From: Candidatus Micrarchaeota archaeon | Lineage (GTDB): Archaea; Micrarchaeota; Micrarchaeia; Norongarragalinales; SBBD01 | Length of the DNA: 10,451 nt | Assembly: GCA_038046605.1 (NCBI GenBank) | Contig: JBBSVW010000050.1 | Coordinates: 1-10,451, forward strand | Direction of reading: 5' to 3' | Position numbers and translations under genes: made by a program | Shown here: positions 1 to 10,451 of the stretch, in pieces | Layout of the letters: the number at the start of each line of letters is the position of its first letter | How positions within the stretch are numbered: the stretch's first letter is position 1 | The notes under the pieces: model-generated | Told to the model about the DNA's origin: nothing | Seen by the model: only the letters and a program-made list of their open reading frames with translations | Databases searched by the model: none

Positions 1-849
1 GTTTGCCATCGCAAAAACAATCGCCTTCTTGCTCATTCCCCTAACCATTTCTCCGCTTACAATATTTGGCGCTGAAACCCCAATGAAAACATCCGCTCCA
101 TTCATCGCATCCTTCAAGGTTCCGGTTATTGCATTTGGGTTAACAGTTTCAGCCAAATCGTTGCGGTATTCATCAGAAAAGCTGCCCATTGCAACAATTC
201 CACTCTTATCGCACAATATTATTTTCTTTGCTCCAGATTCCAAAAGGAGTTTAGTTATAGCAGTTCCAGCTGAACCCACGCCATTTACCACAATTTTGAT
301 TTTGCCCATCTCCTTTTTAGCCAATTTGAGGGCGTTTTTTAGGGCGGCAAGTGTTACGACGGCCGTTCCCCATTGGTCGTCGTGCATGGCCGGAATATCC
401 AATCTTTCCTTGAGCATCCGCTCCACATCAAAGCATCTGGGGGCGGAAATATCCTCCAGATTGATTGCTCCAAAAGAGGGTGAAATATTAACTATTGTTT
501 CGACAATTTCCTCCACATCCTTTGTTTTCAAGCAAATCGGATAAGCATCAATTCCTGCGAATTCCTTGAATAAAACCGCCTTCCCCTCCATGACGGGTAA
601 GGCCGCTTCAGGGCCAATATCCCCCAAACCTAAAACAGCGGTTCCATCGGTTACTATTGCAACAGAATTCCACTTTCCGGTCAAATTGTAAACTTCTTTC
701 CGATCCTTTGCAATCGCCAATGAAGCTTCCGCAACCCCCGGAGTGTATGCAAGGCTCAAATCATCCTTGTCCTTAACCTTCCTCTTCGGCTCCACGGTGA
801 TTTTGCCCCTAAGTTTGCGGTGGTATTCGAGCGCTCTAGAAATCGTCAT
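1..849 (-). CDS. NAD(P)-dependent malic enzyme (MaeB-type N-terminal/NAD-binding domains), 3' end beyond window
   Basis: Manual translation from ATG at 849: [17 protein letters not shown]...[11 protein letters not shown]...[38 protein letters not shown]...[12 protein letters not shown]...HDDQWGTA...NGVGSAG...ADVFIGVS...IVFAMAN. These are standard malic enzyme motifs. The frame is open to base 1. Confidence 0.96.
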
Positions 850-936
850 ATTAACCAGACAATTGTTTTATTTATTATATGTTCTATTTGCCAAACTCCC
901 ATTCGGCTATTCTACGACCGCATTTGTTTTATCCGT

Positions 937-1698
937 TCATTCCACAACCTGTTCCCCTTCCTCTTTTGTCCGGATAACGACTTCCTTGATGAACTTTTTC
1001 GCGACCACCGCCAGCTCCACAAGCCTGATTTTCGGAGTGCTTCCGTATTTTCTCAATTTTTCATCCGCCAGTTTCGATTCTGCCACAAACTGCTGCAACG
1101 CATACCTGTCCGCAAAGGGCACTTCCTTCACTATCTTTTCCACAATTTCTTGCGTATCGTTCACATTTGGGATGATGGTCGTCCGGAATTCAATGTGAAA
1201 ATTTGGGTTCTTTGCTTTATGTGCCTTGAGTATCCGAATGCTCCTAAGCGTATCTTGCATCAAAGTTGCCGGCTCGCCCCTAAAGCCGGTAAGTTCTGCG
1301 TATTTGTCAGCATCGAATTCGGTTTTAATGTCCATTGCAACAGCATCCAGGTAGGATAGCAATGACTCCAGCTTATCGGCATAAAATCCAGTTGTCTCCA
1401 GTTTCACCAAATAGCCAGATTCCTTAAGGCTCCTCATTATGGCGGCAATAGCATCAAACTGCTGCAGCGGTTCGCTTCCGGTGAAAACAACCGCTTCCAT
1501 GTTCGCCTTTTGCAAATTAAGGTGCGAAATAAGCGATTCAACTGAAATTTCCGAGCAATCCTCCGGTGCGAGTGCCACTGGGCCGAAGAAGCCGAATTCC
1601 GTGCGCAATCCAGAGCCGCCCAGCACAACTACGCACGCGGCCTTCCCCGGATACGCGCCTTCCACGCCGTTTATTATGCATGCATATTTCAGGTCCAT
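937..1698 (-). CDS. NrdG/PFL-activating-enzyme-like radical SAM-fold protein lacking the CxxxCxxC cysteines (likely catalytically inactive), 253 aa
   Basis: Family-like segments YPGKAACVVVLGG, AVVFTGSEP, VKLETTG, AMDIK, IEFRTTIIP, YALQQF. The cluster motif reads GSGLRTEFG. ATG at 1698 is preceded by GAGGG and overlaps the upstream stop. The longer 1800 start lies well inside the upstream gene. Confidence 0.82.
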   Translation of the reverse strand: MDLKYACIINGVEGAYPGKAACVVVLGGSGLRTEFGFFGPVALAPEDCSEISVESLISHLNLQKANMEAVVFTGSEPLQQFDAIAAIMRSLKESGYLVKLETTGFYADKLESLLSYLDAVAMDIKTEFDADKYAELTGFRGEPATLMQDTLRSIRILKAHKAKNPNFHIEFRTTIIPNVNDTQEIVEKIVKEVPFADRYALQQFVAESKLADEKLRKYGSTPKIRLVELAVVAKKFIKEVVIRTKEEGEQVVE

Positions 1699-2060
1699 GT
1701 CCAACCCTCTAGCATCTGTGTTCCTAAGGATATTCCTGCCCAAACTAGCAGCATGCCAATTAATATGCCAATTAATAATCCAATTATTTGAGCCCGCCAA
1801 CCATCAAAATATTTATAGGGCCCCCTTTCCAACGGGAAATAGATTTTTTTATTCAAAATTGCATATATCCCCAAAACAATATTATTCAAACCAGCAACAA
1901 ATAGCAACAATGGGAACAAAAATATTAAGTATGCAGATTCTGTTGGAGGTTTCAAATTCAAATAAAAAAGTCCATGCATAAAAACCAATAATAAGACATT
2001 AAGAATCAGGATCAAAATAGCTACTTTGCCTATTTTATTCGCTAAATTTTCCAAATTCAT
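1689..2060 (-). CDS. Small hypothetical membrane protein, 123 aa, about 3 TM helices
   Basis: ATG at 2060 preceded by GGAGTGA, 4 bp after the upstream stop. Hydrophobic stretches VAILILILNVLLLVFM, YLIFLFPLLLFVAGLNNIVLGIYAIL and IIGLLIGILIGMLLVWAGISL. It fills the gap between its neighbours exactly. Confidence 0.75.
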   Translation of the reverse strand: MNLENLANKIGKVAILILILNVLLLVFMHGLFYLNLKPPTESAYLIFLFPLLLFVAGLNNIVLGIYAILNKKIYFPLERGPYKYFDGWRAQIIGLLIGILIGMLLVWAGISLGTQMLEGWTWT

Positions 2061-2064
2061 AATA

Positions 2065-2964
2065 TCACTCCAAAATCTCAACGGCGTCAACAATTCCATC
2101 GCCGTCGTCATCAAAGCCCTGCACCACTTTTGCAAGAACAGTGGCATCGTAATTGTTCCCCTTCTCGATTTTATCCCTTTCCTTGAGGAGCGCAAGCACG
2201 GCTGCTCTGGTTCCCTCATGGTCAGATCCTGCCAAAACGAGGATTTTTTTATTCTTGGAGAACGGATTATCCACCAATTCCACTACGCCGTAATTCTCGC
2301 TGTACTTCTTGTTGGATAGTTTGGAATGGAGCTCGAATGTCTTTTCGTGGAAATAGATGGGGAGGTAGTTGTTGATTTCGGAGATTAGCATATTCACCTT
2401 TGGGCCGCCGAAAAGCACCAAATTGTCCTTCTTGTTTTTTTCCTTGAGCTCCGTATCCAGATAATAGAGGGGATAGTCGAATGTCGCAAAATTCCCAAGC
2501 ATCATCGCAAATTCCGTTGCGCAAAACTCAGATGCGCGGGCGCGGAATTTCCCATGCGGATCCGGTGAGCCTAGCACGATTTTCCCATCAAAATGGCTTC
2601 CTGAGATGAAATGCGAAAGGATTGATGGCGGTTTCTTGAATGCGGCAGAAGAGAACGGATGCCAATGCTCTCGGATCACAATGCTAAGCGCTTCCAGGTT
2701 GCAATTGTACTTGCGCGCGATTGCGCCGCGCTGCTCAGAATACCCTTCCAATTCAATGAGCTTTGCTTCCAATAGCTGCTTGAAATGGTAATATAGCGAT
2801 TGCACGGGCATCTTAAGCTCGCGTGCCATCTCCGCCGGGTATTTGGGCTCCTTGGCCAGCGATTTGAGAATGGTAATTCTTTCGGGCGAAAGCAATGAGA
2901 GTTCCCTTTCCCCTACAATTGAGCTTTCCAAACTCTTGTTCTCCAAAACTAATTTAGCCTGCAT
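2065..2964 (-). CDS. Winged-HTH (ArsR-like) transcriptional regulator fused to an S-layer-C-like domain; start 2964 or 2973
   Basis: N-terminal LSPERITILKSLAKEPKYPAEMARELKMPVQSLYYHFKQLLEAKLIE is an ArsR-type HTH pattern. C-terminal NLVLFGGPKVN and ILVLAGSDHEGTRAA resemble the archaeal S-layer C-terminal domain. Terminal DDDGDGIVD loop. Confidence 0.8.
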   Translation of the reverse strand: MQAKLVLENKSLESSIVGERELSLLSPERITILKSLAKEPKYPAEMARELKMPVQSLYYHFKQLLEAKLIELEGYSEQRGAIARKYNCNLEALSIVIREHWHPFSSAAFKKPPSILSHFISGSHFDGKIVLGSPDPHGKFRARASEFCATEFAMMLGNFATFDYPLYYLDTELKEKNKKDNLVLFGGPKVNMLISEINNYLPIYFHEKTFELHSKLSNKKYSENYGVVELVDNPFSKNKKILVLAGSDHEGTRAAVLALLKERDKIEKGNNYDATVLAKVVQGFDDDGDGIVDAVEILE

Positions 2965-2972
2965 ATAAAACA

Positions 2973-2990
2973 TTTAATACTAGTATGAAA
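2973..2990. promoter_or_regulatory. Candidate operator palindrome TTTaATACTAGTATgAAA
   Basis: Perfect 10-bp palindrome ATACTAGTAT at 2977-2986, extending to 18 bp with one mismatched pair, between the divergent regulator and glmS. Confidence 0.45.
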
Positions 2991-3006
2991 AAATTAATAA
3001 ACATAT

Positions 3007-3024
3007 GCAAAATCTTTATATATA
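3007..3024 (+). promoter_or_regulatory. Putative archaeal BRE/TATA promoter for glmS operon (possibly bidirectional)
   Basis: GCAAAATC followed by TTTATATATA (TATA from 3015), about 35-40 bp upstream of the glmS ATG at 3057. Confidence 0.6.
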
Positions 3025-3056
3025 TTGCCAACCTAAACATGATCTCCGTGATATGT

Positions 3057-4841
3057 ATGTGTGGAATAATCGGTTTTGTTTCGAATGAGGATGAGCCTGC
3101 AGGAAGGCTGCTATTTGATGGCCTTCGAAAGGTCGAATATAGGGGCTATGATTCCGCCGGCATGGCAATCCTGAATGGAGATAAGCTGCTTGTGGAAAAG
3201 GAGGTTGGCAAGCTCGACCAATTCGAAAAGCTCGTTGATGTGGATGAACTTTACGGTTCAAGCGGCATCTCCCACACCAGATGGGCAACGCATGGGGGGG
3301 TAACAAAGCTTAATGCCCATCCGCACACTTCCTGCGATGGCAAAATTGCAATCGTTCACAACGGGATAATTGAGAATTACCAGGAGCTGAAAAAGGAGTT
3401 GGTTGCCAAAAAGCACAAATTCACATCCGAAACCGATACGGAGGTAATTGTCCACCTAATTGAGGAAAAAATGAATGGGGGTTTGGGTTTTAGGGAAGCA
3501 TTCCATTCCGCGCTTAGAATGCTCGAAGGCTCATATGGAATTCTTACTATCTCAAGCAAGGAAAAAAACCTCATTTTGGCGGCAAAAAACGAATCGCCCT
3601 TGATTTTAGGAAAGGGAAATGGCAAAATGTTTGCCGCAAGCGATCCGGTTCCCATACTCAAGCACACAAAGGAAGTGATTTACCTTGATGATGGCGAATA
3701 TGCCCAAATAACAAGCAATTCCCATCAAATTTACAATATTTCAACCGGTGCACTTGTGCAAAAGCAAATCTCCAAAATCGAATGGACTGCGCAAAGCTCC
3801 GATAAGGGAATGTTCGACCATTACATGCTAAAGGAGATTTACGAGCAGCCGCAGGCGATGAAGAATTCACTCGAGCAGCCTTATGGTGCAGTTGAAGAAT
3901 TTGCCAAAGCGATCCACGAGGCAAGGGGCGTCATGTTAATTGGCTGTGGAACCGCGCTTCATGCCGCAATGACCGGCCAATACTTATTCGATAAGATTGC
4001 AGGAAAGCATGTGAACGTGATCAATGCCTCTGAATTCCCCTATTTGGAAACCTCACTTGAAAAAAGCTCCCTTGTGATTGCAATTTCCCAAAGCGGTGAA
4101 ACCGCGGATGTTCTGAATGCGATACGCACCATCAAATCAAAAGGCGTGAAGGTTCTTTCGATTGTCAATGCAGTTGGCAGCTCCATTGCCAGGATGAGCG
4201 ACAAGACGATTTACATCAATGTGGGACCGGAAATTGCCGTTGCAAGCACGAAGGCGTTTTTAGGGCAACTGTCCGTCCTCTACCAGATCGCTTTTGCACT
4301 CAAGGGCAACCTTCCTGAAGGCAAAAAGAAGCTCTCGGAAATAACCGTCCTTTCAAAGGTATGCCTTGACATGAATTCGGAGCGCGTAAAGAAACTGGCC
4401 CAAATTCTCAAATCTAAAGAGCACATATATTTCATAGGCCGGGGCGTAAATTACCCAATTGCCCTTGAAGGCGCACTTAAAATGAAGGAAATTTCCTACA
4501 TACATGCGGAAGGGATGGCTGCCGGTGAACTCAAGCACGGAACCCTAGCTCTCATTGAAAAAGGCTCACCTGTGATTGTGCTAAACCCGCACGATGACAT
4601 GTTTCATGCCACGTTGAGCAATGCGATGGAAACAAAAGCGAGGGGGGCGCACATTATTGCGATAAGCAACTCTAAGAATGAGGCTTACGATGAACTTTTA
4701 CAAATTCCGGAATCCGTTAAGGAGTTTTACCCCCTGCTTTCCGTGATCCCAATGCAGCTTCTAGCATATCATCTGGCAGTTTTGAGAGGATACGATCCGG
4801 ATAAACCAAGGAATTTAGCGAAAAGTGTTACAGTTAAATAA
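3057..4841 (+). CDS. glmS: Glutamine--fructose-6-phosphate transaminase (isomerizing), 594 aa
   Basis: Starts MCGIIG with the catalytic N-terminal Cys, which fixes the start at 3057 rather than 2985. Motifs YRGYDSAG, HTRWATHG, HNGIIEN, SETDTEV, SQSGET, ASTKA, EGALKMKE, ELKHG and PRNLAKSVTV. Confidence 0.98.
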   Translation: MCGIIGFVSNEDEPAGRLLFDGLRKVEYRGYDSAGMAILNGDKLLVEKEVGKLDQFEKLVDVDELYGSSGISHTRWATHGGVTKLNAHPHTSCDGKIAIVHNGIIENYQELKKELVAKKHKFTSETDTEVIVHLIEEKMNGGLGFREAFHSALRMLEGSYGILTISSKEKNLILAAKNESPLILGKGNGKMFAASDPVPILKHTKEVIYLDDGEYAQITSNSHQIYNISTGALVQKQISKIEWTAQSSDKGMFDHYMLKEIYEQPQAMKNSLEQPYGAVEEFAKAIHEARGVMLIGCGTALHAAMTGQYLFDKIAGKHVNVINASEFPYLETSLEKSSLVIAISQSGETADVLNAIRTIKSKGVKVLSIVNAVGSSIARMSDKTIYINVGPEIAVASTKAFLGQLSVLYQIAFALKGNLPEGKKKLSEITVLSKVCLDMNSERVKKLAQILKSKEHIYFIGRGVNYPIALEGALKMKEISYIHAEGMAAGELKHGTLALIEKGSPVIVLNPHDDMFHATLSNAMETKARGAHIIAISNSKNEAYDELLQIPESVKEFYPLLSVIPMQLLAYHLAVLRGYDPDKPRNLAKSVTVK

Positions 4842-4874
4842 GAAAATTTGAATTCTAATCTGGCGTGGTAAACA

Positions 4875-5564
4875 ATGACAATTAAACTCATCGCATTCGA
4901 TTTCGATGGTGTAATTCCCCTTGAGGAATCGCCGCAATACCTATTGGAAAAGCTGGGGCTGAAAAAGGAAAACGACGCCCTTTCAGCTGAGTTTTACGCC
5001 GGGCTTGCCGCCGCAAAAACCGATGCGGAGAGGGATTTGGTGCCGGCAAGGGTGTGGGCAAAATCATTTGCACTCTACCAGCGGTTCCCAGTAAGGCGGA
5101 TGAAAAAGGTTATCGAAAGCCTTCCACTTATTCTGGGTTCAAAGGAAACCTTCAATTATTGCAAGGAAAAGGGGATCAAAACGGCGATACTGTCTGCGAC
5201 GATCATCCCATTGCTCAAATGGAATCTCTCGAAACACGATATTGCTCCTGATTTCATTTTTGGTTCGGAGTGCACGATTAAGAATGGAAGGTTCGAAAGG
5301 CTGCTCTTCGTGCTCTCACCCCAAAGTAAAAGGCTTGCCTTGGAAAATCTGCTCCGCCAATCTAAAATCCTCCCTTCCGAATGCCTCGTTGTTGGTGACT
5401 CCTTTTCGGAGGTACCCATGTTCCGGCTTGTAGGCAAGAAAAATTCCATCGCCTTCCACTACCGTCAAGACATCTCAGAGTATTGCGACCATTTGCTATT
5501 CAAGCAAAACGATGCCGATCGAAATCTGAGTAAAATAATTGATGTTGTTGAAAAATTCAAGTGA
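4875..5564 (+). CDS. HAD-superfamily hydrolase, phosphoserine-phosphatase-like (HAD-IB), 229 aa
   Basis: Motif I FDFDGVI, motif II ILSA, motif III Lys in SKR, motif IV VGDSFSE. A cap insertion follows motif I. Confidence 0.85.
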   Translation: MTIKLIAFDFDGVIPLEESPQYLLEKLGLKKENDALSAEFYAGLAAAKTDAERDLVPARVWAKSFALYQRFPVRRMKKVIESLPLILGSKETFNYCKEKGIKTAILSATIIPLLKWNLSKHDIAPDFIFGSECTIKNGRFERLLFVLSPQSKRLALENLLRQSKILPSECLVVGDSFSEVPMFRLVGKKNSIAFHYRQDISEYCDHLLFKQNDADRNLSKIIDVVEKFK

Positions 5565-5570
5565 TGAGCT

Positions 5571-6815
5571 ATGACGAAATTCGATTTTGTTCTATTGGCG
5601 GCAGGGCAAGGAAAACGTTTGCGTCCAATTACGAATAGCTACCCCAAAACCATGGTCCGGATTCTTGATAAGCCCCTGTTGGAGTGGATAGTTGAGGGAA
5701 TTGTAACAAATTTCGGGGATTCCCTTGGCAAAATTATCATTGTAGTGGGTTTTGAGAAGCACAAAATCACCGAATACTTCCAAAAACATAGGCACGCCCA
5801 AAAAATAGTGTTCGTGGAGCAAAAAGAGCAGAAGGGAACGGCTGATGCAGTATTGCAAGCGCAAAAGGTCGCCCAGAGCCCCTTCTTTTTCGTTTTCAAT
5901 GCGGATACCTTCTTTGATCCAAAATTCTTCGAGCTAATAAAAAAGAATGCAGATTCTCGTCCCTTCATAGTCACAAAGCGCGAGGAGGATGCCTCAGCCT
6001 ACGGTGTGGTGGAGGTGGAGGGGGGAAATCTGGTGGGTTTGATTGAAAAGCCAGCAGATGCCAAAAACAAGCTGATTTCAACTGGGACTCTATTCATGCC
6101 AATAACGTTTTTCGATTATTTGAAAAATGTGAAAATCTCAAAACGCAACGAATATGAAATAACGGATGCCCTCTTGGAGTTTGCCAAAAGCCAAAAACTC
6201 CGGGTTCTCGAATTCGATGGTTATTGGACCGATGTTGGCTACTATTGGAACTACCTTTCCGCATCCGAATACGCGCTCCAGAACTTGATGGAATCAAAAA
6301 TAGAAGGGAAGGTGGAGGATTTTGTGGTCGTTAAGGGAAAATTACATGTTGGCAAGGGATCGGTTGTGAAAAGCGGAACATACATCGAGGGGAATGTTTT
6401 CATTGGCGAAAATACCATCGTGGGGCCAAGCGCCTACCTTCGCAAGGGTGTTGTTATCGAGGATAATTGCCACATAGGAAACTCTACCGAAGTAAAGAGC
6501 TCTATAATCATGCACAACTCCAATGCCGCCCACCTCTCCTACATCGGCGATTCGATCATCTGCGAAAACGTGAATTTTGGAGCCGGCACCAAAATCGCCA
6601 ATCTGAAATTTGACCATTCTGCAATTGCTATAAAGCAGGAGGCTGGAAAAGTGGTTTCCGGAAGGGACAAATTGGGCGCTGTTATTGGGAAAAACACCAA
6701 AACCGGAATCAATGTTTCCATAAACTGTGGAATAATGATCGGAGAGAACTGCAAAATCTCTCCTGCCGCATACGTCTATAATAACCTCGAGAACGATGCT
6801 GTTTTCAAAGGTTAG
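5571..6815 (+). CDS. glmU: Archaeal-type bifunctional sugar-1-phosphate nucleotidylyltransferase/acetyltransferase (GlmU), 414 aa
   Basis: LAAGQGKRLRPIT..PK nucleotidyltransferase signature, EQKGTADA, YGVV, IEKP, EYEITD, WTDVG. C-terminal hexapeptide repeats with HLSYIGDS, GAGTKIANL and GRDKLGAVIG. Lies downstream of glmS. Confidence 0.9.
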   Translation: MTKFDFVLLAAGQGKRLRPITNSYPKTMVRILDKPLLEWIVEGIVTNFGDSLGKIIIVVGFEKHKITEYFQKHRHAQKIVFVEQKEQKGTADAVLQAQKVAQSPFFFVFNADTFFDPKFFELIKKNADSRPFIVTKREEDASAYGVVEVEGGNLVGLIEKPADAKNKLISTGTLFMPITFFDYLKNVKISKRNEYEITDALLEFAKSQKLRVLEFDGYWTDVGYYWNYLSASEYALQNLMESKIEGKVEDFVVVKGKLHVGKGSVVKSGTYIEGNVFIGENTIVGPSAYLRKGVVIEDNCHIGNSTEVKSSIIMHNSNAAHLSYIGDSIICENVNFGAGTKIANLKFDHSAIAIKQEAGKVVSGRDKLGAVIGKNTKTGINVSINCGIMIGENCKISPAAYVYNNLENDAVFKG

Positions 6816-6830
6816 GGCGGGTGCAGTTTT

Positions 6831-7457
6831 GTGTTCAAGGATCGTTGTGAAGCAGGAAAATTGCTTTCATGCAAGCTCGAACATTTTCGGGGAAGGAAGG
6901 ATTGCCTCATCCTTGGAATACCCAGGGGCGGGGCAATAATAGCTTCCGAAATCTCCAAATCGCTTGATCTGCCATTTTCCCTCCTGGTTGTCCGCAAACT
7001 ATGCGCGCCAAACAACCCCGAGCTTGCAATCGGAGCAGTTGGGATGGATGGAATGCCTTATTTGGATGAAAGTATTGTGAAATCGGTTGGCGCCTCGGCG
7101 GAATATATTGGATCGGAATGCGAAAAACAATATTCCGAAGTAAAGCGCAGAATGAAAGAGTTCCGGATTGGCAAAACCATTTTGGCAAACAAGACAATTA
7201 TTCTGGTGGATGATGGGATAGCAACCGGCGCAACTGTCATTGCCGCAATCCAAATACTTAGGTCGCAAAAAGTGAATAGGATAGTTCTTGCTGTTCCGGT
7301 TTGCTCGATTGATACATCAATTGAAATGAAACGCTTGGTTGACTTTTTTATCTGCCTAAATCTTCCGGAATCCTTTTCCGCCGTTGGGCAGTTCTATTCG
7401 GATTTTAGGCAGGTTAGTGATCAGGAAGTGAAAGAATTGCTTTTGAAGGGGAAATAA
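6831..7457 (+). CDS. Type I phosphoribosyltransferase of the uncharacterised COG1926-like group, 208 aa (GTG start)
   Basis: FKDRCEAG, GIPRGG, VVRKL, ELAIGAV, PRPP-binding ILVDDGIATGAT, LAVPV and AVGQFYSDFRQVSDQEV. Confidence 0.92.
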   Translation: MFKDRCEAGKLLSCKLEHFRGRKDCLILGIPRGGAIIASEISKSLDLPFSLLVVRKLCAPNNPELAIGAVGMDGMPYLDESIVKSVGASAEYIGSECEKQYSEVKRRMKEFRIGKTILANKTIILVDDGIATGATVIAAIQILRSQKVNRIVLAVPVCSIDTSIEMKRLVDFFICLNLPESFSAVGQFYSDFRQVSDQEVKELLLKGK

Positions 7458-7528
7458 AGTAACTGTTATGGCGGGAGGATATCCAATTAGTGGCGATATA
7501 TTTTCCTCGATACGAAAAATAACTTTCT

Positions 7529-8230
7529 TTACTTCCCAAACCTTCTTTCCGTCTCGTTGTAGAATTCGACCGCCTCCTTGAAATCCTCCTTGGTGAATTC
7601 CGGCCAAAGCTTATTGCTGAAATACAATTCGGAATACGCCGTTTGCCATGGCAGGAAGCCGGATAACCTGGATACGCCGCCTGTCCTGATGATAAGATCG
7701 GGCGATAGCGGTGAATAGAGGTATTTTTCAAATTCCTTCTCGTTCAATTTGCCTGCCTTTGAAAGTGCATCCTTCCTTCCATAAAAGTCCACGAGGATTT
7801 TCCTTGTTGCATTTAGGATTTCCTCCCTTCCGGAATATGCAATGGCGATTTCCAACGTGGAGGCGAATTTGGATGTGTTGGACTCCAATTCCGAAATCAT
7901 TGCCTGCAAATCCTTTGGCAGCAATTCGAGTTTCCCGAAGAATTTCACCTTGATTTTCTTCTTTTCGAAAGTTTTATCGCGAAGGGTCTGCCGAAGTTTG
8001 TGCCTCATTAGCGAAAAGAGGATCCGAAGCTCGAATCTGCTTCTCTTCTTGAAATTTTCAAGGCTTAGGGCCCAGAAAGTGATATTGTTTATGCTGGTCC
8101 CTTCCGCCCAATCCAGCACCTCCTCCACTTTCCTGAAGCCCGCGCCATACGCATTCTGCACGCTAAGCTTGCCCTTCGAAGCGAACCTGCGGTTTCCATC
8201 CGGAATAATCGCTATGCTTTTCAGTCTCAT
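7529..8230 (-). CDS. uppS: cis-prenyltransferase (polyprenyl diphosphate synthase, UppS family); alternative GTG start 8239
   Basis: IAIIPDGNRRFA, LSLENFKKR, AIAYSGREEI, PDLIIRTGG.SRLSGFLPWQ, YSELYF..KLWPEF and ERRFGK. Confidence 0.96.
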   Translation of the reverse strand: MRLKSIAIIPDGNRRFASKGKLSVQNAYGAGFRKVEEVLDWAEGTSINNITFWALSLENFKKRSRFELRILFSLMRHKLRQTLRDKTFEKKKIKVKFFGKLELLPKDLQAMISELESNTSKFASTLEIAIAYSGREEILNATRKILVDFYGRKDALSKAGKLNEKEFEKYLYSPLSPDLIIRTGGVSRLSGFLPWQTAYSELYFSNKLWPEFTKEDFKEAVEFYNETERRFGK

Positions 8231-8270
8231 GTTTCCCACTCGAAAAGTGATATTTTTAGTGCCGCCATCA

Positions 8271-8280
8271 TTTATATAAG
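8271..8280 (-). promoter_or_regulatory. Putative TATA box for uppS
   Basis: Minus strand reads CTTATATAAA about 40 bp upstream of ATG 8230, within the 8231-8300 intergenic gap. Confidence 0.55.
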
Positions 8281-8300
8281 TTTAGATTTGTTTTCCGCCT

Positions 8301-9182
8301 TCATGGGAAGGTGGCGCTCTCAATTAACGCTCCAACAAATACCAATCCTACTGCAAATCCCATGAGCTTTATTACATCGAATGTGATTGGCTTGAACTCG
8401 GGCGTCCCCCAAATTTTCCTGGAAAGGGCGGAACTGAGGATGCCGCCTGCGAGCGCGCCGACAAGGTATGCGATTGCTTCGAATGTACCGTGGGGTATGA
8501 GCCCTAGAATTCCATAGCTTATTCCCGGAATCAGGGAAAATGCCGGAGCCTCGTTGAAAACGAATTTTTTCGCCACGTTGCCGATAAATACCCCGATTAT
8601 TGATGCATTCCAGATGATTATGAATACGGAGCCCGCCCCGTAAATCAAGGAGCCCAGTATAACTAGGGCAAGAACCCTAAGGTTTTGGGTCAGTATGAAA
8701 AAGAAGGGATTCGTTGGGCCCGATGCGCTTGCGGATAGGGGGCTTGCGCCATTTTCCAGGAATTTGCCGGAAAGCTGGTTTGAAAGGCTCTGGATGCGCT
8801 TTAGCTCATTCAACTGGGGCTCGAAAAATTTAGCGCCCCTGACCGGATCGGTTTGCTCGAGGAAAAGATACCAGAAGGTGTATGCAATTGTTAGCCCTAT
8901 GAAAAATGCCGCAAGCACCAACACGACTGAAAAATGCCTCCTTATAGTCCTGCTCCCAAGGACAATTTCATGCTCCATCTCCTCCTCTTCCAGCTTGAAG
9001 AGGTTTAGGATGAACGGTATTGATGGGATTAGCGTGAACATTATGAGCATTGCCCCCGGCGGCTCGACTTTAAGGTAATCGACAATTCCAATTGCAAGTG
9101 ATACGAAAATGAACGCAAGGACAATGATTTCGGATGGATTCCTTTCAGCGGTCCTTGGCCCGATGAATGCTTCAACGACCAT
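8301..9182 (-). CDS. SpoIIM/DUF95-like integral membrane protein, 293 aa
   Basis: Multiple hydrophobic helices. ILTQNLRV, IIIWNASIIG and IPHGTFEAIAY match the N...N...PHGxxE pattern of the stage II sporulation protein M family. Confidence 0.8.
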   Translation of the reverse strand: MVVEAFIGPRTAERNPSEIIVLAFIFVSLAIGIVDYLKVEPPGAMLIMFTLIPSIPFILNLFKLEEEEMEHEIVLGSRTIRRHFSVVLVLAAFFIGLTIAYTFWYLFLEQTDPVRGAKFFEPQLNELKRIQSLSNQLSGKFLENGASPLSASASGPTNPFFFILTQNLRVLALVILGSLIYGAGSVFIIIWNASIIGVFIGNVAKKFVFNEAPAFSLIPGISYGILGLIPHGTFEAIAYLVGALAGGILSSALSRKIWGTPEFKPITFDVIKLMGFAVGLVFVGALIESATFP

Positions 9183-9203
9183 GATTTGTTATTTTTTCCC
9201 GGC

Positions 9204-9211
9204 TTTTAAAT
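9204..9211 (-). promoter_or_regulatory. Putative TATA box for the SpoIIM-like gene (leaderless spacing)
   Basis: Minus strand ATTTAAAA ends about 22 bp before ATG 9182. No Shine-Dalgarno is evident. Confidence 0.45.
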
Positions 9212-9304
9212 CTGATAGTTGAACATTTAATTCCGGAAATAATGGGAAACTAAATCGGAATTGCATATCTCTTCAGCTATATTTTTTTATGCCAGAACCC
9301 ATCC

Positions 9305-9326
9305 CCAACCAACAATATTTAAACAA
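9305..9326 (+). repeat. 22-bp direct repeat copy 1 (CCAACCAACAATATTTAAACAA)
   Basis: Identical to 9424-9445. Confidence 0.95.
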
Positions 9327-9361
9327 CACCTCTAGGGAACCAAGGTTCCCTACGCGTGTTG
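9324..9361. repeat. Inverted repeat/hairpin CAACAC-ctc-TAGGGAACC-AA-GGTTCCCTA-cgc-GTGTTG
   Basis: Perfect 9-bp arms at 9333-9341 and 9344-9352, plus outer 6-bp arms at 9324-9329 and 9356-9361. Confidence 0.9.
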
Positions 9362-9423
9362 CCTCTACCCCCCTAATTTGTTTTGGCAATTTCATATCAC
9401 TTGAATTTTATGCGAACGTTTCA

Positions 9424-9445
9424 CCAACCAACAATATTTAAACAA
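9424..9445 (+). repeat. 22-bp direct repeat copy 2, containing a probable TATA box (ATTTAAA) for the nuclease gene
   Basis: Identical to 9305-9326. TTTAAA at 9437-9442 lies 21 bp before ATG 9464. Confidence 0.9.
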
Positions 9446-9463
9446 GAAGCGGTTTCTTTTTCC

Positions 9464-10451
9464 ATGCTCGTGCCCACCATTTCGGGAGTTGCCCTCCAGC
9501 TTGAGGAAGAAAAGCTCATCCTTGATGGAAGGGGCGATTTGGTTTTCATCTCCCATGCCCATTCGGACCATTCCGCCGGGGCAAAAACCAGCCGGCGCAT
9601 TATTGCTTCCGAGGAAACCATTGATTTGATGCACTCGCGCAATTATGCAGATTCCCTTGTTACCCGCTCAAAATTGATGAAAAACCCTCCATTCAAATAC
9701 GAGCTTTTGGATGCCGGGCATGTGCTAGGTTCAAAGCAGCTCTACATCGAAAACAGCTCCTCTTTTATTTATACTGGAGATTTCAAAACCAGGGATTCGC
9801 TAACAAATAAGGGTGCGGTAGTTAGGCAAGCAGACCTTCTCATGATGGAAACAACATACGGTTTGCCCTTTTACAAATTCCCCCCAATGGAGCACGTTTA
9901 CAACGAAATGGCGCACTGGGTGAATCAAACCCTCATAACCGGCTCATCGCTCATCATTGGCGGCTATTCGCTTGGGAAGGCGCAGGAGATAATCAAATTG
10001 CTAAACGACTATTGCCAGATAACGCCGGTAGTAAGTTCTGAAATTTATAGGATCTGCCAGGTTTACCGCAAATACGGGGTAAATCTCCAGGTGATAAATG
10101 AAACCTCGGAGGAGGCAAAGGAGATTCTTGGCACCCAATTCGTAGCCGTTGTTCCCCATCATTTCGCGAATTTCAACTATGCAAGAAGGCTCTGCGAATT
10201 CTACGCCTGCGATGTGAGGGTGGCTGTTTGCACCGGCTGGGCAATAGATGGGAATTACTCGGCTGACCGCTCTTTTTGCCTCTCCGACCACTGCGATTTT
10301 GATGATCTGATCAATTATGTTGAAGGTGTTGCCCCAAAGCGCGTGATCACAATGCATGGATTTGAAAAGGAGTTCGCAGCCGAATTGAAAAAGCGCGGCT
10401 ACAATGCGGAGCCCATTTCAAACCTTAAGCTTAGGCCCCAAAAAGTGCTGG
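9464..10451 (+). CDS. Metallo-beta-lactamase/beta-CASP family nuclease (COG1236-like), 3' end beyond window
   Basis: Manual translation: MLVPTISG...FISHAHSDH...AGHVLGS...YTGDF...METTYG...GYSLGKAQE...TGW...LSDHCDFDDL...TMHGF. The frame is open to the window end. Confidence 0.93.
   Translation, partial: MLVPTISGVALQLEEEKLILDGRGDLVFISHAHSDHSAGAKTSRRIIASEETIDLMHSRNYADSLVTRSKLMKNPPFKYELLDAGHVLGSKQLYIENSSSFIYTGDFKTRDSLTNKGAVVRQADLLMMETTYGLPFYKFPPMEHVYNEMAHWVNQTLITGSSLIIGGYSLGKAQEIIKLLNDYCQITPVVSSEIYRICQVYRKYGVNLQVINETSEEAKEILGTQFVAVVPHHFANFNYARRLCEFYACDVRVAVCTGWAIDGNYSADRSFCLSDHCDFDDLINYVEGVAPKRVITMHGFEKEFAAELKKRGYNAEPISNLKLRPQKVL

Follow-up and report, generated by a model that had tools for sequence, protein, structure and literature searches.

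A homologue of NrdG2-type radical SAM activases without cluster cysteines is kept by purifying selection in a genus of Micrarchaeota

Radical SAM enzymes hold the methionine end of S-adenosylmethionine (SAM) at the unique iron of their cluster. The described systems closest to the gene analyzed here are NrdG2 (TIGR02495), an activase of class III ribonucleotide reductase (RNR), and the pyruvate formate-lyase activating enzyme (PFL-AE; solved structures 3CB8, 3C8F and 8FO0), which carries a CxxxCxxC cluster motif and acts on a glycyl-radical enzyme. The annotation of radical SAM proteins usually rests on the fold alone, and the present gene represents a case in which the radical chemistry implied by such an annotation would not be possible. 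It lies in a stretch of 10,451 nucleotides from a Candidatus Micrarchaeota archaeon (Micrarchaeia; Norongarragalinales; SBBD01; assembly GCA_038046605.1, contig JBBSVW010000050.1, positions 1 to 10,451), referred to below as the window, and encodes a homologue of these activases in which all three cluster cysteines are replaced (P0001; 937..1698, reverse strand). The protein is probably a selected, cluster-less radical SAM descendant, predicted from its sequence to act as a non-radical pseudoenzyme that binds a ligand or a partner. Neither a cluster-less protein of the activase type nor this Micrarchaeota family was found in the open-access library searched, as judged by title and start of abstract.

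The assignment to this group of enzymes follows from family models, profiles and structure prediction. TIGR02495 is the best-scoring NCBIfam family for the target protein (E 7.8e-29, 100.4 bits), with a score below the curated cut-off of 131.15, and the alignment covers model positions 13-193 of 193, so that the motif region is aligned rather than skipped. The general radical SAM model PF04055 is matched at 31.4 bits (cut-off 29.5), while the scores for TIGR02493 (PFLA; 55.6 bits, cut-off 231.75) and TIGR02494 (39.3 bits, cut-off 174.35) remain below their thresholds. By sequence profile, the closest entry of the Protein Data Bank (PDB) is PFL-AE of E. coli (E 1.8e-13). An AlphaFold2 model built on an alignment of 110 sequences has six beta-alpha units, a predicted local distance difference test (pLDDT) score of 93.4 and a predicted template modelling (TM) score of 0.91, and its confidence dips only at the former cluster loop (blocks 31-50, pLDDT 72-78). 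The top Foldseek matches of this model are the PFL-AE structures 3cb8 (3cb8_A, E 7.1e-14), 3c8f and 8fo0, with E values of about 1e-13 and TM scores of 0.72-0.76, followed in the ranking by NifB, viperin and QueE; there are 205 PDB matches at E <= 0.001, and those listed are all radical SAM enzymes. A search of the ESM Atlas gave only clusters of NrdG type. The predicted fold is the partial (beta/alpha)6 barrel of radical SAM enzymes, and the relationship to NrdG and PFL-AE proposed in an earlier note on this DNA is confirmed.

The likeness to NrdG2 extends to the length class and the barrel as well as to the motifs GxEP, [DE]TxG, DxK, EFRTT and YxLQQF. However, the target scores below the family cut-off, has no cluster cysteines, comes from a genome in which no NrdD was found and belongs to a separate clade with invariant residues of its own. 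With its low score and no co-occurrence or clustering with NrdD, it is not assignable as an NrdG2 equivalog, and the three-cysteine [4Fe-4S] motif by which membership in the radical SAM superfamily is judged is missing. PFL-AE is the closest solved structure by both profile and fold, and the counterparts of its cation and SAM-carboxylate site are kept; in contrast to PFL-AE, the target has no CxxxCxxC cluster motif and no glycyl-radical enzyme to act on, and identity between the two is only 14-16%. Two sources annotate members of the clade, one as "4Fe-4S cluster-binding protein" and the other as PFL-activating enzyme.

The gene comprises 253 codons and a stop in an uninterrupted open reading frame (ORF). 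A TTG at position 1800 is a possible longer start, but all homologues begin with MDLKY instead. The former cluster motif, now G28-S29-G30-L31-R32-T33-E34-F35-G36 (1591..1614, reverse strand), takes the place of CxxxCxxC with no indel, and a base-by-base reading gives TCT for S29 (1614-1612), ACG for T33 (1602-1600) and GGC for G36 (1593-1591). TCT and GGC are each one base away from a Cys codon, and none of the three codons is TGA. The replacement of all three cysteines in a full-length frame and the codons used, both of which the earlier note had read from the DNA, thus stand. Only three cysteines, C7, C22 and C48, are present in the protein. The counterpart of the GGE(P) SAM motif is G74-S75-E76-P77 (1468..1479, reverse strand), aligned to G77-G78-E79 of PFL-AE; that of the DTNG motif of PFL-AE is E101-T102-T103-G104 (1387..1398, reverse strand), and D123-I124-K125 (1324..1332, reverse strand), which is invariant across the whole family, is aligned to D129 and K131 of PFL-AE. 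Contigs of three other public runs, one from the same study (X2) and two from a second study (X3 and X6), span the loop codons with zero differences. Over the entire gene, eight strain-level differences between runs are listed, seven of which are synonymous, the remaining one being K238R.

All genomes compared here are metagenome bins, the 12 without the cysteines being 62-92% complete, and a gene that is not found in them is not to be equated with an absent one. A word-index search yielded nine further proteins of 253 amino acids at 66-82% identity to the target, from Micrarchaeota where the source is named, and GGS-x-L-[RK]-T-E-F-G is common to all ten. The S/T/G form occurs at 65-84% identity in all seven genomes of the genus of the window, termed g1 (G000, G131, G141, G172, G275, G317 and G318), with the copy of G172 ending at a contig end. 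Neither stops nor indels are present in the seven genomes and ten protein clusters down to 65% identity. At the kept loop residues, synonymous codons have turned over among the seven genomes, with TCT, TCC and TCG for S29, ACG and ACC for T33, GAA and GAG for E34, and GGC, GGA and GGT for G36. The ratio of nonsynonymous to synonymous substitution rates (dN/dS; Nei-Gojobori, NG86) within g1 ranges from 0.057 to 0.167 in the 13 of 21 pairs for which it was computable, dS being too saturated in the other eight; since dS is at least 1.4 everywhere, these values are rough, though far below 1. In clades with the cysteines, dN/dS is 0.14-0.21. The Cys-less protein is kept by purifying selection, and is a product of neither decay nor assembly error. 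The earlier note had asked for a Cys-less clade with dN/dS well below 1 and had favored retention over decay, and both are borne out by the seven genomes. Decay of the gene, or an artefact of sequencing or assembly, could be argued from the two replacement codons that lie a single base from Cys codons; both are as good as refuted by the same replacements in unbroken frames of seven genomes and ten clusters, by the low dN/dS and by the identity of the loop between runs of two studies.

Compared with their Cys-containing sisters in family f1, the g1 proteins show fixed switches at V25 (from F/Y), S29, T33, E34 (from G), G36 and Q63 (from K/R), with further differences at C7 (from S/G) and F38 (from S) and no indel. 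The old motif retains its aromatic residue, F35, in g1; in radical SAM enzymes, this position packs against the SAM adenine. Residues that are invariant or nearly so among the 110 family sequences are likewise intact in g1, namely E76, P77, T102, G104, D123, K125, E170, R172, T173, T174, L201, Q202, F204 and R243, and the same holds for Q80, Y106, N180, D181, D197 and the C-terminal tail RT-x-EEGEQ. The earlier note had claimed a coordinated loss of the cluster and the SAM motifs. While the SAM motif of the target is G-S-E-P and not G-G-E-P, Cys-containing sisters have GAEP or GGEP, and ETSG, ETNG or ETAG in the second motif, so that the claim does not hold: such variants are shared with sisters that retain the cysteines, and the other invariant pocket residues are kept. 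In the alignment, E101, T102, A121 and D123 of the target correspond to D104, T105, M127 and D129 of PFL-AE, which PMC10267522 describes as ligands of a monovalent cation that touches the SAM carboxylate.

The next-closest proteins, at 40-57% identity and also from Micrarchaeota, retain GGCP[FL]RCG[YF]C. In a tree of 60 rows, which like the larger tree below was a quick search, the Cys-less proteins and these Cys-containing relatives form one clade of 40 rows with a Shimodaira-Hasegawa-like approximate likelihood ratio test (SH-aLRT) value of 100, here called paralogue B, and a separate clade of 20 rows holds the NrdG genes that adjoin NrdD in related genomes. Scores against TIGR02495 are 210 and 226 bits for two canonical NrdG proteins, 96-145 bits for seven Cys-containing members of paralogue B, only one of which exceeds the cut-off, and 60 and 70 bits for two Cys-less proteins of genus g7. 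The distribution of scores for a paralogue-B profile over 68 genomes of the order is bimodal, with at least 186 bits in 52 of them and at most 156 bits for canonical NrdG proteins. Residues Q80, Y106, N180, D181 and D197 and the acidic tail RT-x-EEGEQ are the invariant features specific to paralogue B. Paralogue B is an order-specific family derived from NrdG, distinct from the NrdG encoded beside NrdD and unlinked to NrdD.

The earlier note had proposed a repurposed pseudoenzyme, be it a scaffold, a ligand binder or a regulator of a glycyl-radical enzyme such as NrdD, and the distribution of RNR genes bears directly on a link to NrdD. NrdD (PF13597) was found in 33 of the 68 order genomes. 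The genome of the window, which is 90.7% complete, gave no match to PF13597 (NRDD) or PF01228 (Gly_radical), and no second NrdG2-like gene was found in it; it carries one class II NrdJ (TIGR02504, 690 bits) and three other PF04055 proteins. None of the ten large ORFs in the window was identified by Pfam as nrdD or pfl, in agreement with the earlier note. Within g1, only one of seven genomes (G141) has NrdD, and its own canonical NrdG adjoins the intact 674-aa NrdD ORF. Overall, NrdD co-occurs with paralogue B in 26 of 39 genomes with the cysteines, as opposed to one of 12 without, a contrast that rests on three lineages of kin and is to be read as a pattern rather than a test. These numbers, together with the clear ancestry in NrdG and PFL activases, would allow that the radical function was once tied to NrdD or anaerobic life. 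A present role as regulator of NrdD is nevertheless very unlikely and was not borne out, because the genome of the window has NrdJ in place of either glycyl-radical match, NrdD is missing from 11 of the 12 Cys-less genomes and from 13 of the 39 Cys-containing ones, and the sole g1 genome with NrdD encodes a separate NrdG for it. Since the Cys-containing sisters in family f1 are already without NrdD, the pattern fits an order of events in which NrdD, or anaerobic life, was lost before the cluster. As a caution for annotation, a match to 'NrdG' in genomes of DPANN archaea does not imply class III RNR or anaerobic nucleotide metabolism.

A separate observation concerns NrdD itself, which appears to be split just before the glycyl-radical tail in class III RNR relatives, e.g. 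in G056 (L041:1299-3498) and also in G141 (L036). In G056, an ORF of 681 amino acids ends in the C-terminal zinc-ribbon region and is followed 8 nt downstream by an ORF of 48 amino acids with an RVxGY-type motif, after which the canonical NrdG follows. The same kind of two-piece Pfam match to NrdD, in different open frames, recurs in about 20 genomes of the order, which could represent a true split gene, recoding or an artefact of the model.

Loss of the cysteines was observed more than once within paralogue B. The N-terminus could be read in 51 of the 52 genomes, G324 being excluded as its copy is cut at a contig end; CxxxCxxC is retained in 39 and missing from 12, comprising the seven of g1, four of g7 (G192, G077, G326 and G325) and one of g136 (G321). 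The g7 loop reads GGP-x-x-[CV]-P-Y-L. A profile search of 1.84 billion proteins was additionally performed, and ten of the best 150 representatives examined are without the motif, three being N-terminally truncated and seven of full length (P0126, P0131, P0132, P0133, P0134, P0136 and P0212). In a tree of 122 rows, all 17 Cys-less rows belong to paralogue B, whose clade has 48 rows (SH-aLRT 99), and the 72 rows outside include no further one. At least four state changes are needed on this tree, a count that is unchanged without 15 loop columns, and the starred branches force at least two. A single Cys-less clade is rejected by the approximately unbiased (AU) test (log-likelihood difference 116.5, p-AU 1.3e-5), with the reservation that the Cys-less group for this test was defined after a tree had been seen. 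The cysteines were lost at least twice, probably four times, and within paralogue B only.

The residues that replaced them differ between lineages. At the three sites, the other Cys-less lineages have GVL, GCL, NK-, QST, GYY, TDS or SFY, with no common replacement cysteines. Across all rows of these other lineages, E76, P77, Q80, G104, E170, N180 and D197 are kept, and T102, Y106 and D181 are kept in all but one. The replacement residues bear on the idea that the window protein is still a radical enzyme, whose cluster would be bound through non-cysteine ligands together with C7 and C48, or be lent by a partner. In the g1 clade, C7 is a new residue shared by 14 of 14 rows, C48 is likewise invariant, the loop has gained E34 as a fixed acidic residue, and the three other PF04055 proteins indicate that Fe-S and radical SAM chemistry is available in the cell. 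Even so, there are only two conserved cysteines, G36 is unable to ligate a metal and the replacements in other lineages are unrelated, making retained radical activity highly improbable.

The explanation preferred here, that of a cluster-less protein kept for a non-radical function, would start from a duplicate of an NrdG2-type class III RNR activase, which in these Micrarchaeota would have become the order-specific paralogue B, untied from NrdD. In the genus of the window, changes from C to S, C to T and C to G then struck the three cluster positions with the loop length unchanged. With all three ligands gone, no [4Fe-4S] cluster, no SAM cleavage and no 5'-deoxyadenosyl radical are to be expected. 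The rest of the active-site face has stayed under purifying selection, including the motif aromatic, the GxE-P turn, the acidic and cation site of ETxG and DxK, the EFRTT strand, YxLQQF and the paralogue-specific N180, D181 and D197. Since this face is conserved in g1, the pocket would still be in use, most likely to bind a ligand (SAM, some other adenosyl compound or a nucleotide), a protein partner or both, and the protein might serve as a sensor, an adaptor or a non-radical enzyme.

In addition to the reservations on tree searches, AU grouping and saturated dS given above, several points weigh against this explanation. Because SAM is anchored at its methionine end by the cluster iron, the affinity for SAM without a cluster may be low, and conservation of the pocket could alternatively serve the stability of the fold alone. 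The other Cys-less lineages have kept R172, Q202 and R243 only in part, so the function retained in common may not need the full SAM site. PMC10267522 describes a hydrogen bond between the Glu of GGE and the helix that follows it, which would allow this Glu a structural role. It also links the Gly-Gly pair to a cis-peptide, and this pair is broken by the change of G75 to S or A. Furthermore, no RNA run was among the eight public runs found with the gene, and the neighbourhood comparison found no conserved partner gene in g1.

Distinctive in this system is that a minimal activase type stands alone in genomes without a glycyl-radical enzyme and that the loss recurs within one paralogue family. 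The occurrence of the same paralogue with and without cluster ligands in one order, with the rest of the pocket kept in g1, amounts to a natural experiment: non-radical functions of parts of the barrel could come to light when a Cys-less member is compared with a close sister of about 50% identity that has the cysteines.

Outside family f1, the surroundings of paralogue B point to a possible protein partner. In six loci (L054, L055, L059, L060, L061 and L065), the gene lies directly upstream of and codirectional with the gene of the mismatch endonuclease NucS/EndoMS, with distances from an overlap to 64 nt, L065 being a Cys-less g7 locus, and a GT1-AsnB-STT3-GT4 block often precedes the two genes. 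Of the first 20 non-f1 genomes in which paralogue B was located, 18 have NucS on the same contig at a distance of no more than about 4 kb. NucS (PF01939) was detected in 49 of the 68 order genomes, but in none of the seven g1 genomes, that of the window included, and the two Cys-containing f1 relatives with NucS have it on other contigs. As a side observation, the genus without NucS is the same genus that is without cluster cysteines. A complex prediction for a Cys-less g7 protein and its neighbouring NucS reached an interaction prediction score from aligned errors (ipSAE) of 0.38, a weak value (runs 0.38, 0.39 and 0.02; best control 0.01); custom alignments were used for it, the contacts of the runs agree to at least 92%, and the pLDDT of the partner is at least 88. 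In the calibration, 116 of 157 solved complexes and two of 215 mismatched pairs reached the ipSAE mark, but only 18 of the 157 and both mismatches did so with 0.60 or less, so that a score in this range misleads in most cases unless the prior is high. The modelled g7-NucS complex gives a weak hint that concerns the family and not directly the window protein, whose own genome has no detected NucS.

These data could be taken to mean that the barrel is purely a docking surface for a protein partner, NucS in sister lineages, with a structural pocket that binds no small ligand. The proximity to NucS, the g7-NucS score above its control and the retention of the gene while its cysteines went repeatedly would agree with such an adaptor. 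It is rather unlikely for the window protein, as selection in g1 is at least as strong as elsewhere even though NucS was not found there, f1 relatives keep NucS on other contigs, the complex score is of a size that more often misleads, and conservation in g1 concentrates on the active-site face. In a more far-reaching idea, paralogue B might be a family with two functions in which radical chemistry is dispensable and the lasting role is that of a SAM- or adenosyl-sensing subunit that communicates with DNA-maintenance proteins, NucS in some lineages and another partner in g1. This proposal is speculative and, on the present sequence data, improbable. If true, an oxygen-labile cluster would have been shed repeatedly, and the sensor kept, in lineages that abandoned NrdD and a strictly anaerobic life, providing a natural series from a radical SAM enzyme to a non-redox regulator.

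A role of paralogue B as QueE was considered and rejected, as QueE models give at most 28.8 bits against cut-offs of 200-300. In the same context of archaeosine synthesis, tRNA-guanine transglycosylase (TGT; PF01702) was found in none of the 68 order genomes, including that of the window, while the same search was positive in all 14 control genomes, and a search for QueC returned only PP-loop fragments. The missing PF01702 in all 68 genomes suggests, as an observation of its own, that the order is without archaeosine.

In the window, Pfam families assign the large ORFs other than the target to a malic enzyme, an HTH_20/S_layer_C protein, GlmS, a HAD hydrolase, a GlmU-like nucleotidyltransferase, a phosphoribosyltransferase, a UPP synthase, a SpoIIM-like membrane protein and a beta-CASP-like metallo-hydrolase. 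Downstream of the target and codirectional with it lies the malic enzyme gene (1..849, reverse strand), which is cut by the end of the window and also follows paralogue B in the f1 loci L047, L048, L049, L051 and L052. Upstream, a small ORF of 123 amino acids from an ATG at 2060 (1689..2060, reverse strand), with hydrophobic segments and no Pfam family, overlaps the start of the target with its stop by ten bases. It is preceded by the gene of a 302-aa protein with an HTH_20/ArsR-type N-terminus and an S_layer_C-like domain (2065..2973, reverse strand), which is upstream of paralogue B in six f1 loci. The general gene order of family f1 is GlmS on the opposite strand, the HTH/S_layer_C gene, a variable small gene, paralogue B, the malic enzyme and NAD synthase. 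The small membrane ORF was rejected as a conserved partner: ORFs of this kind, which do not cluster by BLAST, precede the gene in no genomes other than that of the window, G131, G172 and G125, and are missing in G275 and G141. In G141, and in G131 in addition to the membrane ORF, a soluble protein of 242-249 amino acids without a Pfam family is encoded at this place.

Three further features of this neighbourhood can be recorded. The small hydrophobic ORF begins 4 nt past the stop of the HTH gene, giving an operon-like chain from the HTH gene through the membrane ORF and the Cys-less protein to the malic enzyme. In G131 (L048:6510-7457) and G141 (L049), a protein of 242-316 amino acids without a Pfam family (cluster 22) is encoded between the HTH gene and the Cys-less gene. 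Finally, the joining of a DNA-binding HTH_20/ArsR N-terminus to an S_layer_C-like outer domain in the product of 2065-2973 is an unusual pairing.

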